In this document: piece after piece, positions 33,971 through 41,807 of the stretch
Numbering within the stretch: position 1 is the stretch's first letter
Layout of the letters: each line of letters opens with the position of its first letter
Assembly: GCA_965248535.1 (NCBI GenBank)
Contig: CBDFJR010000002.1
Location: forward strand, 2,304,001 to 2,368,000
Source: Phormidesmis sp.
GTDB lineage: Bacteria; Cyanobacteriota; Cyanobacteriia; Leptolyngbyales; Leptolyngbyaceae
Direction of reading: 5' to 3'
Length of the DNA stretch: 64,000 nt
Program-made: the position numbers and the translations under genes
The notes under the pieces: generated by a model
Told to the model about the DNA's origin: nothing
Databases searched by the model: none
What the model saw: only the letters and a program-made list of their open reading frames with translations

Positions 33971-36242
33971 CTAGACGAATTCATCGCATCTTTGCTTTTG
34001 GGCTAGGAGTCGGGATTGGGGTTGAGGAGCACTTGGAAGCGATCGTCTTGCCGAATGCCATCAAAATCTGAGTCTGTTTTTGCCATCTCTCGGCACTCGG
34101 AATATAAGTTGATGGCTTGTTGTAGGGTGGCAATGGCTAAATCAACGTTCTTCTGCAACCCATAACAGCAGGCTTTGTTGTAATGCGTCCTGGCATCATT
34201 TGGCTTGAGCGAGATCGCCCGATCGTAGCTAGCGATCGCGTTCGTCGTTGCGTCCTAAGCTTTGTCAGACAAGCGCCACGCCGCGGTTGTTCCACGCTTC
34301 GTGATAGTCCGGCTTGAATTCCAGGGCTTTGTCATAACTCGCGATCGCGTCGTCGTTGCGTCCTAAGGCAGACAGCGCCACGCCGCGGTTGTACCACGCT
34401 TCGTGATTGTCCTGCTTGAATTCCAGGGCTTTGTCATAACTCGCGATCGCGTCTTCTTTGCGTCCTAAGTCAGACAGCGCCACGCCGCGGTTGTACCACG
34501 CTTCGTGATAGTCCTGCTTGAATTCCAGGGCTTTGTCATAACTCGCGATCGCGTCGTCGTTGCGTCCTAAGGCAGACAGCGCCACGCCGCGGTTGTACCA
34601 CGCTTCGTGCTTGTCCGGCTTGAATTCCAGGGCTTTGTCATAACTCGCGATCGCGTCGTCGTTGCGTCCTAACGCCGCGGTTGTTCCACGCAGACAGCGC
34701 TTTGTCACTCGCGATGCCGCGGTTGTGTACCACGCTTCGTGATCGTCCTGCTTGAATTCCAGGGCTTTGTCATAACTCGCGATCGCGTCGTCGTTGCGTC
34801 CTAAGGCAGACAGCGCCATGCCGCGGTTGTACCACGCTTCGTGATCGTCCCGCTTGAATTCCAGGGCTTTGTCATAACTCGCGATCGCGTCTTCATACCG
34901 ACTCAGGTTGTATAGTGCATTGCCACAGTCAAAACACTCAGCAGCTACCGGATAGGTGGGATCTTGTTTTGCCATTCGACCCAGTTGTTTCAAGATCGCA
35001 GGCACATAGCGCCCCACATCCACCGCGCCCGTTTTCTTCATCTCAATCTGCCCATCCTGTGGCTTCAAGATCTGCTCTGTGGTCATCAAATAGTCCAAGA
35101 CGCGCCGTAACTGCCATTCTTGCCGCCAGCGCCGCACCCCACGCCCCGGCAACAAGCGTTTTGTTGTGGCTTCTAACATCGGTGGCGTTAACCAAAGATT
35201 TAAGCTCCGCAATAGCTCCACCGCATCATAGGCATACACCGCTAACGGATAGCGCTCCACTGCCTTTTTATACTTCTGTCGCCACGTCTCATCCAGCCTA
35301 GGCGAAAACTCCTGATTATTCACCGCCAAACCGCGATTTTGGGCAGTGCCCAAATTCAGTGTGATATTCCGAAACGTGCCGTCATTTCGCCTCGCAATCT
35401 GCCCATACTCCTCCGAGACTCCCCGCAACCCTGCCGCTGCCACGCAGTCTGTCAACAAACTGACAACGGCACCCTCAGACGGCTCCACCAACGAGTAGGG
35501 GTGAAACTGCTGCCAAAACGATCGATACTTCTCCCACTGGAGCTTATCTCGCGGCGATGTGTCCCCCGGCTTATCTGGCTCACGCTCATTTCGCGCCATC
35601 GCAATCACCCGCACATAGCCCAACTTGCCCTGATCTTCAAAATACTTCAACAGTCGCGGCAACCGTTCCTGCACTGGCTCCCGCAGGGGTCGCGCCACCT
35701 CTTCCAGCGCTTTAGGATGACTCTTATAATGAATGCCCGTATACATCCAGCGATTCAGATCATCTAAAAAAAACAGCAGCTTATCGTCAGGGCTAATCTC
35801 ACTGGGGAATTCCTTTGGCACATCTAGCCATTCCCCCGGTCGATCCGCCAGCTTCAGCACCGTCCAGCCCTCCCGGTTGAGCACCTCTGCCAAGTGAGCC
35901 GCTTCCCGCGTCTTGCCCAAGCCCGACTTGCCCAAAATCAAGACCCAGTTCTTTTCACTAAAGGCAATCTCTAGCTCATTACGGATATTGCGATCGGGCT
36001 GGCGCTCTTGATAAGGAATCTTGTAATCAGCCTAGAGCGTTATTTTCATCACCGCCCATGATTTCCTTCAGCAAGTCAGGGGTGTGAGGTTTGAACACCT
36101 TAAACGGGAAGTCGCCAGACGGAAGTTGGCGGAGGCGCTTTGTCTTGCGACGCGCTTCTAACCATTTGGTAGTCCCTAAGATTCCACCTGCGATGGTTCC
36201 GATCAGAGCAAGAATCTTAGTAATGTCGTCAAAATTCGGCAT
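33971..36242 (-). pseudogene. TM + P-loop NTPase + TPR-repeat protein, frameshifted near 36030 and 34240-34270 (pseudogene or assembly error)
   Basis: ORFs 36027-36242 and 34265-35941 join through a 1-nt shift; Walker A GKSGLGKT, Walker B FFLDDL; tail YNKACCY...AKTDSDFDGIR ending TAG at 33971. Confidence 0.75.
34200..34910 (-). repeat. Near-identical 102-nt tandem repeats encoding TPR units
   Basis: Repeated AWYNRGVALSALGRNDDAIASYDKALEFK; one scrambled unit near 34670-34730. Confidence 0.9.
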
Positions 36243-37879: not shown

Positions 37880-38189
37880 TCTAGGAAATACCTTCTTTAA
37901 ATCTGCACCGATGTAGTCGTGAACCAATTTGTCGCGCATCCCTGCCATCAGCCGCCAGGGAATTGGTAGGATAGCGGATTTAAAAGTGCATAACACCCTG
38001 CAAGGATCTGTGGCGGAATGATTTTTTGGTAGCTTCACCCACGATTTCTAAGGCGCGAATGACAGCATAGTGAGTCCGTTTGTCTTGCTCAAAGGTGACA
38101 AAATCTATGCCCACCACAAACTGCATCGCGTCATCTGCATAGTTCACAATGTCTTGAAGGTAGTCTTGACTAGTGCGAGGTGGGGTCAT
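37880..38189 (-). pseudogene. HepT/DUF86 HEPN ribonuclease toxin, frameshifted and C-terminally truncated
   Basis: YLQDI...AVIRALEIVGEATK in one frame, IPWRLMAGMRDKLVHDY (RX4HXY) in another. Confidence 0.8.
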
Positions 38190-38539
38190 AGGGGCAAGAC
38201 CTCTTGAAGAATGCGATCGCCAATTTTAGGCTTGAGCGCACCTTTCTCGACTAGATCAACTTTGATGTGCAGTTCATCGCTCAGTTCATATTCCAGGGCA
38301 ATGAACTGGAGCAGGGTCAAGGGGCGATGGTCAAACTCAATCAGCAGATCAAGGTCACTGTCAGGAGTTTGTTCGCCGCGTCTATAGGAACCAAACACGC
38401 CTAGCGAAATCACTCCATAGCGATCGCGCAACTCTGGCAGCATCGCTTTCAAGGTTTGGATGATGCGCTCTAACGGCTCTCCTTTCTCTGAGGAAGAGAG
38501 ACTAGGGTTTCCTAGGTTAGTCGAAGGGGTAAAAGTCAT
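38186..38539 (-). CDS. MNT minimal nucleotidyltransferase antitoxin
   Basis: VFGSYRRGEQTPDSDLDLL (GSX10DXD), VDLVEK; ATGA overlap with HepT. Confidence 0.9.
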   Translation of the reverse strand: MTFTPSTNLGNPSLSSSEKGEPLERIIQTLKAMLPELRDRYGVISLGVFGSYRRGEQTPDSDLDLLIEFDHRPLTLLQFIALEYELSDELHIKVDLVEKGALKPKIGDRILQEVLPL

Positions 38540-38638: not shown

Positions 38639-39043
38639 TTAGGGAGTGATGAGTTGTAGGGCTGGAAAGTAGGTACGGTAGCGATTGACATCTCTGGTGA
38701 GTAGCGGCATTCCGGTAACGGCAGCGTGAGCACCAATGTAGAAGTCGGGCAGCGGCGATCGCCGCTCTCCCCCACGGCGGCGGTGCTCAAGAAAGCTTTG
38801 CCCTGCCAAAAAAGCAGCCTCGTAGGGTAAGGGGTCGCGCCGGAAGAAGTCGTTAGGCAAAACAGCTTCGAGTTCTTCGACCTGGTTAAACCCGATCGAA
38901 ATTTCGGCATAGATCAAGGGGTTGATCACGAGAATTCCCCGATCGGCATACTCAACAAGCCTCTGGGCTGACCACTCAAACCACTGGAGGTCTTCAGTCA
39001 ACACATCCAGAATGACGTTGCTATCGACCAAAACATCTGTCAT
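38639..39043 (-). CDS. vapC: PIN-domain VapC toxin
   Basis: VLVDSNVILD, IYAEIS, LPDFYIGAHA, LLTRD. Confidence 0.92.
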   Translation of the reverse strand: MTDVLVDSNVILDVLTEDLQWFEWSAQRLVEYADRGILVINPLIYAEISIGFNQVEELEAVLPNDFFRRDPLPYEAAFLAGQSFLEHRRRGGERRSPLPDFYIGAHAAVTGMPLLTRDVNRYRTYFPALQLITP

Positions 39044-39270
39044 AGATCATCACGAGTTAGCTGCATGATGTCTTGAGTGCTTAGGCGATTGGTGGCTTTG
39101 CCTCGCATCGCTGCAAGCAAGCTAAAACCCCGATGTTCAGCCTCCTTTTTACGAAGCTGAAGGGTTTCGCCCACAACTTCAATCTCGATCTCCGTCCCAG
39201 GCAATAATCCAAGCTGCTGTTGAATGTCGGGGGGAATGGTGATTTGTCCTTGTGAGTTGATTTGGCTCAT
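39040..39270 (-). CDS. AbrB/MazE-family antitoxin
   Basis: INSQGQITIPPDI...LGLLPGTEIEI; ATGA overlap with vapC. Confidence 0.88.
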   Translation of the reverse strand: MSQINSQGQITIPPDIQQQLGLLPGTEIEIEVVGETLQLRKKEAEHRGFSLLAAMRGKATNRLSTQDIMQLTRDDL

Positions 39271-39523: not shown

Positions 39524-40012
39524 ATGCCATACCAAAATATCTCCGCCAAACTCACCGACACCGATCTTCAAGACATCAAAACCGCCTTAGCGACGATCGA
39601 GACCAAACTGCCCTTCCTGATTCATCTCACGGTCGAAGAACGCCGCAAACTGTTCAAAATGGGCAACAAAAGTCTCGCCTTTGTCAACAACAGCCTCACT
39701 GCTGCCCAGTCTAACCCCGACATTTTGCCCGCCAGCTTTGACCTTGACGAATTTAGCAGTGACTATCAGCTTGCCGCCACCCTCTCCGAAGTCCATCTCA
39801 GACTGCAACAACTCACCGAAAAAGTAGACGACACCCTGATGGCCGTCAGCAGCGAAGCCATGACTAGCAGCCTCACCGTCTATGAGTACGTCAAAACCGC
39901 CGCCAAAAAGACCCCCGGACTGAAAGCGATCGCCGAGCAACTCAGCGAACGGTTCAAAGCCTCCCGCTCAAAGGCTGCCAAAGTAGACCCTATCTCCACC
40001 TCTGGCTCGTGA
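39524..40012 (+). CDS. Uncharacterised 162-aa predicted all-helical protein
   Basis: Clean ORF; amphipathic helices; LPFLIHLTVEERRKLFKMG, basic C-terminal tail. Confidence 0.8.
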   Translation: MPYQNISAKLTDTDLQDIKTALATIETKLPFLIHLTVEERRKLFKMGNKSLAFVNNSLTAAQSNPDILPASFDLDEFSSDYQLAATLSEVHLRLQQLTEKVDDTLMAVSSEAMTSSLTVYEYVKTAAKKTPGLKAIAEQLSERFKASRSKAAKVDPISTSGS

Positions 40013-40020
40013 GCTTATCG

Positions 40021-40293
40021 ATCAGAGATCACAACTCATCCATGAAGGAGAGCCTCTCGTCTACGAGTCTTGACGTTACTCTGACGAGTCTTGACATCTT
40101 CCTCCCAAGTCTTTAGGGGTCTCCTGCAAGCCTTTTAGCGTCTCTCGTGAGTGTTTGATGGTCTCTTCCGACTCTTTGCATCTAGGTCACGAGGAGTTGT
40201 ATTAGGTTGACGAGTCTCTACACCTCATTGATGAGTCTTTGCATCTCGATCGCAGAGGGTTGCATCTCCCCCGCGAGTTCTTTAGTGTCCTCA
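40021..40293. repeat. Degenerate 21-nt tandem array, 13 units in unbroken phase
   Basis: Units start every 21 nt from 40021 to 40273; approximate consensus RYGAGTCTTTRCATCTCNNYN. Confidence 0.85.
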
Positions 40294-40450
40294 TCACGGC
40301 AATGAATGATTTCGTCTCAGATCTCCTCTCGATCTTGCAGTCAAGGAACTCGCAGTTGGAGCGATCGCCCTGCGCTCAACAAGCGGAATGTGATTCAGAC
40401 CCCTTTGATTTGTGGAAGCGTTAGGGCAAGACTTGTTCTGCCCTCTGATC

Positions 40451-40483
40451 AAAAAAAGGACGGAAATGAATGATTCCCGTCCT
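40451..40483 (-). terminator. Probable intrinsic terminator of ahcY
   Basis: Minus strand AGGACGGGAATC...TTCCGTCC followed by a T run. Confidence 0.6.
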
Positions 40484-40517
40484 CACATATCAGAACTTTT
40501 TGACGACAAACTGATCC

Positions 40518-41807
<1,290 letters not shown>

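Follow-up and report, generated by a model that had tools for sequence, protein, structure and literature searches.

Non-coding tandem repeats of constant size (20 to 21 nucleotides [nt]) and variable sequence are described from many groups, including the Cyanobacteria, in the accessible part of a report by Subirana and Messeguer (PMC8161180). The same part equates the repeat unit with two turns of DNA and proposes a polymerizing protein or small RNAs, with no function or partner known to its authors. Here, we analyzed a stretch of 64,000 nt from Phormidesmis sp. (assembly GCA_965248535.1, contig CBDFJR010000002.1), referred to below as the window, in which a gene for a 162-amino-acid (aa) protein is followed by a strictly phased array of 21-nt units. 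The window corresponds to positions 2304001 to 2368000 of contig C2 in its own 5.03-Mb genome, labeled G000. The constant-size class was reportedly also the subject of a 2020 paper by Subirana and Messeguer in the Journal of Bacteriology. A literature search found no paper linking 20- to 21-nt repeats to a protein, with the 2020 paper and the supplements of both articles lying outside that search, and a search for cyanobacterial 21-nt repeats found nothing specific.

Comparison with relatives indicates that gene and array form a genuine module of two parts that is conserved and so far unexplained. The loci compared show both parts and how they are coupled in evolution, and from these we infer a mechanism. 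The module consists of the following features:

39524 to 40012, plus strand: gene for the 162-aa protein, from the open reading frame (ORF) call, with its TGA stop codon at 40010 to 40012

40021 to 40293, no strand assigned: non-coding array of 13 units of 21 nt, delimited by lag autocorrelation and stacking of the units

40231 to 40251, plus strand: best-preserved single unit, ATGAGTCTTTGCATCTCGATC, which carries the core common to Leptolyngbya-like and Nostocales arrays

The 21-nt array in the window

An earlier note, made from the sequence of the window, had counted 13 units of 21 nt starting 8 nt past the stop codon, and this count fits positions 40021 to 40293 with the gene ending at 40012. 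The five units that it quoted are present at 40063, 40084, 40168, 40210, and 40231. Identity at lag 21 was 0.517 over positions 40013 to 40300 (0.523 over 40013 to 40293) and 0.451 at lag 42, with all remaining lags from 1 to 60 between 0.19 and 0.34 over the former interval. The best lag between 5 and 60 in 2,000 shuffles had a mean identity of 0.321 (standard deviation, 0.013) and a maximum of 0.381. Across the whole of G000, just 34 sequence windows had a lag-21 identity of at least 0.47.

The first two units are very degenerate, and the eleven units from 40063 onward stand in one register. Units are approximately 62% identical to their own consensus, which is approximately ACGAGTCTTTGCATCTCGTTC and includes the core GAGTCTTTG...CTC plus the arms ACGAG and CTCGT. 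The arms form a near-palindrome, CTCGT-NN-ACGAG, spanning the borders between units. Tandem Repeats Finder, at a minimum score of 30, detected nothing at the array site because the units are too diverged, and autocorrelation was therefore needed.

Linkage of gene and array in relatives

The panel of related genomes comprised 61 genomes, 25 with the family gene (up to seven copies each) and 36 without it. In relatives' genomes, the strongest lag-21 window lay directly downstream of the gene at 20 of 20 loci. A further set comprised 80 named cyanobacterial loci, 79 of which had enough sequence for the lag test. The best lag was 21 or 42 within 600 nt downstream at 69 of these 79 loci and in only 1 of 77 upstream controls. 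Seven of the ten misses carry their array 835 to 955 nt downstream, past inserted repetitive elements and a small ORF, and most of the others are cut by contig ends. When 1.5 kb downstream was considered, an array was found at 89 of 100 cyanobacterial loci (85 of 96 distinct loci, four being duplicates); among the 11 array-less loci, four have less than 400 nt of downstream sequence and four have weak arrays slightly below the threshold. The earlier note had proposed a search of homologues for a recurring downstream 21-nt peak with divergent consensus and without a conserved ORF; this is the pattern found, and it favors a protein-array module.

By profile search, G000 itself contains exactly two family genes, both of which have an array. 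Two broken gene copies in relatives have none, and the intact paralogue in one of these genomes has one. Nostoc orthologues keep the gene, a conserved spacer of 92 to 148 nt, and the array together, while the sequence past the array varies. The distance from gene to array ranges from 1 to 955 nt, with arrays often starting 1 to 150 nt after the stop codon. Orientation could be assigned to 47 gene-linked arrays; the core lies on the coding strand of the gene in 35 and is inverted in 12.

Two features of the interval between gene and array were observed in Nostoc. At seven loci (L054 [2200 to 2840], L055, L057, L063, L076, L077, and L079), palindromic miniature elements with runs of G/C lie between gene and array, a small ORF of approximately 120 aa is also inserted there, and the array is inverted relative to the gene. 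In the spacer of loci such as L041 and L060, a perfect, conserved hairpin (GTAGGGGCACAGCA..TGCTGTGCCCCTAC; stem of approximately 14 bp) lies approximately 60 to 90 nt past the stop codon and could be a terminator or a processing site.

Unit sequence and coding potential

In the Nostocales, the unit reads ACGAGT-CTTTGAT-ACTCGT plus a variable junction of 2 to 4 nt, with arms of 5 to 6 bp alternating with a conserved asymmetric spacer. In Leptolyngbya-like genomes, including that of the window, only GAG...CTC or ACGAG...CTCGT is left. A core of 9 to 15 nt is conserved from Leptolyngbya-like to Nostocales genomes. More distant paralogues, with approximately 45% protein identity, have very different units of unchanged length, and similarity between consensus units climbs with protein identity, from chance level below 50% to at least 16 of 21 positions above 95%. 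A logo pooled from 462 units of 43 arrays reads GAGTcTTT[G/A/T]atACTC and ends in six variable positions. Conserved blocks (positions 1 to 8 and 12 to 15) alternate with variable ones (positions 9 and 16 to 21), without a three-base period.

With seven codons per 21-nt unit, any array can be read as a heptad repeat, and the earlier note had considered a decayed or recoded antisense coiled-coil gene among its explanations. The heptad-like antisense string that it quoted (..MQRLINEV*RLV..) is present in the window, and in the antisense reading (..QRLVxE..) hydrophobic residues occupy heptad positions a and d; a sense reading (..ESLxLxx..) was considered alongside it. Further points in favor of a coiled-coil gene are that some relatives (L011, L013, and L015 among them) have an antisense frame without stops over the whole array, that true coding heptad repeats exist elsewhere in G000, and that one array of related type lies in frame within a large ORF.

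The distribution of stops argues the other way. The window array contains at least three stops in each of the six frames, as the note had observed. When 62 arrays were set in register on the core and stops were counted per frame, the sense frame (ESLILxx) was open in 27 arrays, the antisense frame (xEYQRLx) in 11, and the other four frames in 0, 6, 2, and 36; no frame was open across all 62. Stops in all six frames were found in 24 of 82 arrays. Most of the antisense stops are TAA where glutamine would stand; such stops are present even in the consensus of near-perfect arrays, and the antisense stop differs between the close relatives L013 and L014. Most open stretches run no further than the borders of the array, and no start codon precedes them. 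In addition, the positions T6 and C15, which would be four-fold degenerate third positions, are 94% and 92% conserved in the pooled logo and so rank among the most conserved, whereas, in a control comparison of the adjacent gene in the window with 20 Nostocales genes, four-fold sites at conserved residues were only 34% identical (322 of 937). Since T6 and C15 are conserved while the four-fold sites of the gene are saturated, selection acts on nucleotides. By these measures, the array is non-coding and is selected at the nucleotide level. The coiled-coil pseudogene is accordingly rejected as largely refuted by the frame and conservation data, and we regard it as scarcely credible.

Read-through or frameshifting from the gene into the array was considered but rejected: in the window, the sense "ESL" frame lies at +1 relative to the gene and is interrupted by three stops, and a stop-bearing spacer of 92 to 148 nt separates gene and array at the Nostoc loci.

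Heptad repeats within genes were also observed. The array at positions 1886 to 2074 of locus L143 (G034:C19:8000-12000) has a related core, lies in frame within an ORF of 1,175 aa, and reads ..EASIHPK..; 21-nt arrays are evidently tolerated inside genes. Coding heptad repeats in G000 are located at C2:240394-241218, C2:1718484-1719272, C5:261188-261452, C5:1147950-1148238, and C5:1182366-1182638. These coding 21-nt repeats form the C-terminal ends of proteins that are presumably endonucleases of the Uma2/DUF820 type, and they provided a contrast to the non-coding arrays.

Orphan arrays and their co-occurrence with the gene

A second array in G000 is located between an antiporter gene and polA, with no family gene nearby. 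Its consensus agrees with that of the window array at 16 of 21 positions, compared with a maximum of 13 among 500 random pairs. This orphan is present in all four same-genus genomes with a close gene (G000, G001, G003, and G007) and is absent, with flanks abutting or nearly so, from G002 and G006, which are without an intact close gene. Approximately 12 non-coding 21-nt arrays were found in G000, and with the exception of two coding Uma2-type repeats, the window array and one orphan are the only pair whose consensus sequences agree, all other pairs being at chance level.

Orphan arrays in the panel were sought with a pattern of three cores at 21-nt spacing, allowing at most two mismatches. Of the 25 genomes with the family gene, 14 contained a match; of the 36 lacking it, one did, and there the match is single and chance-like. 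One genome (G011) has seven core-bearing orphan arrays and two family genes. The surroundings of 20 core arrays were read, and none has a family gene within approximately 2 kb by profile search. Relative to flanking ORFs, 10 of 18 orphans lie downstream and are co-oriented and eight are not, which is close to chance as far as crude ORF calls allow. Co-occurrence of orphans with the gene is the pattern predicted by a trans-acting partner.

The protein family

The 162-aa protein had been taken for the product of an orphan gene, which proved incorrect. One search returned 740 homologues at an E value of ≤1e-3, from sources that include Leptolyngbya, Nostoc, Moorena, and Scytonema, and where a name is given it is "hypothetical," a few spurious automatic labels being the exceptions. 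Among 1.84 billion representatives of 50% clusters, a profile search matched 3,977 at ≤1e-3 and 2,276 at ≤1e-10. Outside the Cyanobacteria, members occur in Plasticicumulans and on a Thiodictyon plasmid. In the ESM Atlas, only unnamed clusters were matched, two of them mostly of Bacteroidota and one automatically labeled "methyl-accepting chemotaxis"; these serve as leads only. Conserved motifs of the family are LPFLxxLTxEERxxLxKMGxKSxxFV, NPxxLPxxFD, and DDTxxAxGSEA.

Pfam and NCBIfam contain no family for the protein, and a Pfam scan of 99 diverse members gave no consistent match in any of them. Searches of Pfam, NCBIfam, PADLOC, and PHROGs yielded nothing credible, the best matches being DUF5929 (E value, 0.033), a holin (0.035), and ribosomal protein L16 (0.059). 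With a 99-row alignment, AlphaFold2 predicts an all-helical protein with a predicted local distance difference test (pLDDT) score of 95.3, in line with the helical character expected from the sequence in the earlier note. The predicted helices span residues 12 to 28, 37 to 42, 48 to 63, 74 to 126 (53 residues), and 133 to 151; a single-sequence fold was poor (pLDDT, 54.6). An acidic core contrasts with a basic C-terminal tail (residues 141 to 162; isoelectric point [pI], 10.3).

A possible assembly of the protein on phased DNA sites

The explanation that we tentatively prefer, at somewhat less than an even chance, is that the protein assembles on DNA sites spaced two helical turns apart, both in the array next to its gene and, in trans, at the orphans. 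The protein, probably a dimer or higher oligomer, would recognize GAGTCTTTG...CTC, the short conserved core with small inverted arms that every unit carries. With all sites facing the same side of the helix, side-by-side assembly is possible, and a nucleoprotein complex may form in this way on the array beside the protein's own gene. The same protein would act in trans on core-sharing orphan arrays elsewhere in the chromosome. Candidate roles of the complex are nucleoid organization, segregation, and local transcription control.

Sequence comparison establishes the linkage of gene and array, the strict phase, the selection on the core, and the co-occurrence of orphans with the gene. That the protein binds the array at all, and that it binds DNA rather than RNA, we infer. 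In favor of DNA, the unit length equals two helical turns, and the phase is kept despite heavy substitution. Moreover, 12 of the 47 orientable gene-linked arrays are inverted, the distance to the gene is variable, and orphan orientation is random. Positions 17 and 20, which flank a 2-nt center too short for an RNA loop, covary weakly (odds ratio, approximately 2.2).

A broader and more doubtful proposal concerns the family as a whole. Its members may be the partners of constant-size 21-bp repeats, each acting as a helix-phase-dependent sequence reader that polymerizes on satellite-like arrays scattered through the chromosome and forms nucleoprotein landmarks, with paralogues each reading their own repeat family. 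Because arrays are seen only together with the gene, their origin or persistence may depend in part on the protein as well.

Several observations weigh against assembly on phased sites. Proteins that are 90 to 92% identical may carry arrays that match at chance level on the same strand; we read these arrays as inverted and diverged, and they weaken a strict lock-and-key picture. Spacings between anchor words are multiples of 21 in 698 of 742 cases, with six off by 1 or 2, but the arrays were delimited by their lag-21 score, and the count is hence partly circular. The two absences of the polA-locus orphan, in G002 and G006, may equal one single loss, and because the panel genomes are related, counts made from them overstate the number of independent events. 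Approximately 10 non-coding 21-nt arrays in G000 have unrelated consensus sequences and no family gene nearby; therefore, 21-nt arrays as such need no adjacent gene. The Thiodictyon plasmid locus, the sole non-cyanobacterial locus read, has no array (lag-21 identity, 0.32), and a metagenome scan with a proteobacterial member gave one partial match, also without an array. The protein itself carries no DNA-binding signature: its pI of 6.13 (against a family median of 5.84) makes it mildly acidic, and just 31 of 99 members have a pI above 8. A Foldseek search with the AlphaFold2 model found no known DNA-binding fold (best E value, 0.89), a VIA-align structure-only search of 48,161 chains gave generic helical hairpins (best Z score, 6.3), and a profile sequence search of the PDB found no informative relative, its best match (E value, 0.0014) being a de novo designed protein. 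The absent fold match does not exclude DNA binding.

Alternative explanations

Both assembly on phased DNA and a repetitive RNA partner had been raised in the earlier note; the former is favored, and the latter is a rather unlikely but serious competitor. In the latter case, transcription of the array, alone or at the 3' end of the gene's mRNA, would yield an RNA of many units that binds or sequesters the protein in the manner of a sponge RNA or controls mRNA stability. The core lies mostly on the coding strand of the gene (35 versus 12), arrays are often near the stop codon, and a 650-nt metatranscriptome contig from a relative with approximately 91% identity runs from the gene into the array in one run, although this contig may derive from library DNA and is no proof of a single transcript. 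Transcription of bacterial satellites is described for another repeat class in the accessible part of a paper by Subirana and Messeguer (PMC8625621). Nostocales units are able to form hairpins of 5 to 6 bp (ACGAGT-N7-ACTCGT), and G-T combinations outnumber A-C combinations in the arms (260 versus 169). However, RNA folding of the window array was not significantly different from that of shuffles (z scores of +0.52 for the plus strand and -1.62 for the minus strand), many arrays lack significant arms, and hairpin covariation between position 20 of the previous unit and position 17 was not found. Inverted arrays and randomly oriented orphans would yield different RNA, and an RNA sponge offers no obvious reason why heavily substituted units should hold to a strict 21-nt phase. 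The 14-bp-stem hairpin between gene and array in Nostoc may end the transcript, and an Rfam search of the module gave no credible match. In RNA runs X1 to X3, most of the array is uncovered, which is no evidence of silence.

It is improbable that the array is a structural or cis-acting DNA element to which the protein does not bind. The in-phase bends of such an element would serve as curved DNA, as a landing pad for nucleoid proteins, or as a transcription barrier, terminator, or insulator, and it would simply be co-inherited with the gene. Constant size with variable sequence, as in the accessible description of the published class (PMC8161180), is compatible with such an element, as are the unrelated arrays of G000 without a nearby family gene and a protein without a DNA-binding signature. 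A specific core that is conserved while synonymous sites of the adjacent gene are saturated speaks against it, and so do core-bearing orphans that track the presence of the gene and broken genes that have lost their array. More improbable still is a selfish or array-making element, in which the protein would create, spread, or maintain arrays, for example by seeding new loci. Such activity might account for arrays that exceed genes in number (seven orphans versus two family genes in G011), for the polA-locus array that is either present or cleanly absent with abutting flanks, for Nostoc loci whose downstream sequence varies while gene, spacer, and array stay together, and for the array in frame within a large ORF. 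Family and structure searches, however, found no recombinase-, transposase-, or polymerase-like feature in the protein, and searches of viral contigs, phage records, and a plasmid collection returned no relative except one on a plasmid.

Neighboring genes and other repeats

Immediate neighbors of the module in the window are VapBC-like toxin-antitoxin genes and ahcY rather than cas genes:

37980 to 38539, minus strand: nucleotidyltransferase (117 aa) and HepT-like ORF (69 aa), upstream of the module

38639 to 39270, minus strand: PIN-domain protein and MazE/AbrB-like antitoxin, upstream of the module

40456 to 40484, minus strand: strong hairpin followed by a T-run, the terminator of the convergent ahcY and the sole clear terminator

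40518 to 41795, convergent: adenosylhomocysteinase gene ahcY, whose terminator is the far boundary of the intergenic region holding the array

The 69-aa HepT-like ORF matches the first third of the HepT profile only and is possibly truncated or split. The corresponding locus of a close relative (L011) has the MNT/HepT pair but not the PIN pair. A sigma-70 scan found no promoter near the 162-aa gene. Conserved neighbors as functional partners were considered and rejected, as flanks differ between loci and even the largest cluster of upstream ORFs is found at only 15 of 88 loci. None of the flanking ORFs of the relatives' loci is ParA-type ATPase-like, and HEAT-repeat ORFs lie downstream at Nostoc loci. 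The earlier note had suggested a defense or selfish role from the toxin-antitoxin neighborhood; a defense role finds no support, because these neighbors are not conserved and no defense model matched (no PADLOC family at an E value of ≤0.1 for the 162-aa protein).

An ORF of approximately 140 to 150 aa, putatively an HNH-type endonuclease by its Cys/His motifs, was observed upstream at 11 of 88 loci, mostly on the same strand (L018, L020, L036, L043, L053, L067, L071, L093, L098, L099, and L104). Within the window, positions 34232 to 34672 contain a 102-nt tandem repeat (4.3 copies, 94% identity) that is probably coding. Examples of the unrelated 21-nt arrays in G000 are as follows:

C2:1410878-1411142, unrelated non-coding array

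C2:1429205-1429336, unrelated non-coding array

C5:941938-942143, unrelated non-coding array

C5:1053048-1053133, unrelated non-coding array

C5:1782578-1782784, unrelated non-coding array

C5:2167570-2167789, unrelated non-coding array

By eye, TTTG or CAAA occurs in 7 of 10 unrelated consensus units, which is above our chance expectation.

Significance and comparison with known systems

At approximately 100 relatives' loci, one repeat sequence family is tied to one conserved protein family that has no name, Pfam model, or known fold. A puzzling class of constant-size repeats thereby gains a candidate partner protein, and an open descriptive puzzle becomes directly testable. If binding is confirmed, the protein would represent a new DNA- or RNA-recognition fold and the module a new layer of chromosome or transcript organization in cyanobacteria and perhaps in other phyla.

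Like a CRISPR locus, the module places an array of short repeats beside a gene. Its units are contiguous and without unique spacers, the neighbors are not cas genes, and no CRISPR repeat of Rfam scored above threshold in the module. The array is not CRISPR because it has no spacers, as the earlier note had correctly judged.

CsrA is a small beta-rich protein that acts with sponge RNAs of the CsrB/RsmZ type. The CsrA/RsmA system resembles the module in having one small protein and dispersed multicopy loci of a short motif, some of them in hairpins. The protein described here, by contrast, is predicted to be all-helical, with approximately 160 aa, and is not beta-rich. Sponge RNAs would not be expected to keep a strict 21-nt phase or to come with inverted arrays and orphans in random orientation, and transcription of the arrays is barely documented, by one metatranscriptome contig.

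Plasmid centromere and iteron arrays adjoin the gene of their binding protein, as in sopB-sopC of F, repA-incA of P1, and parR-parC of R1. The likeness lies in tandem direct repeats beside a small gene, short inverted repeats within the units, a spacing that keeps sites on the same helical face, and the potential of distant copies to act in trans. Unlike these systems, the module is chromosomal, lacks a partner ATPase or replication gene, and has neighbors that are not conserved; its protein showed no likeness to ParB, ribbon-helix-helix, or winged-helix proteins in the structure searches, and its binding is only putative. The module is not filed as a plasmid-type centromere or iteron because it lacks the partner ATPase and its protein matched no known fold.

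Window-type arrays fit the constant-size class of 20- to 21-nt repeats, as far as that class is described in the accessible part of the report by Subirana and Messeguer (PMC8161180). In both, the unit is 21 nt (sometimes 42), the repeats are non-coding, and a genome contains several families of the same size and different sequence. That part of the report names no partner protein or gene neighborhood, whereas the arrays described here are linked to a specific protein family.

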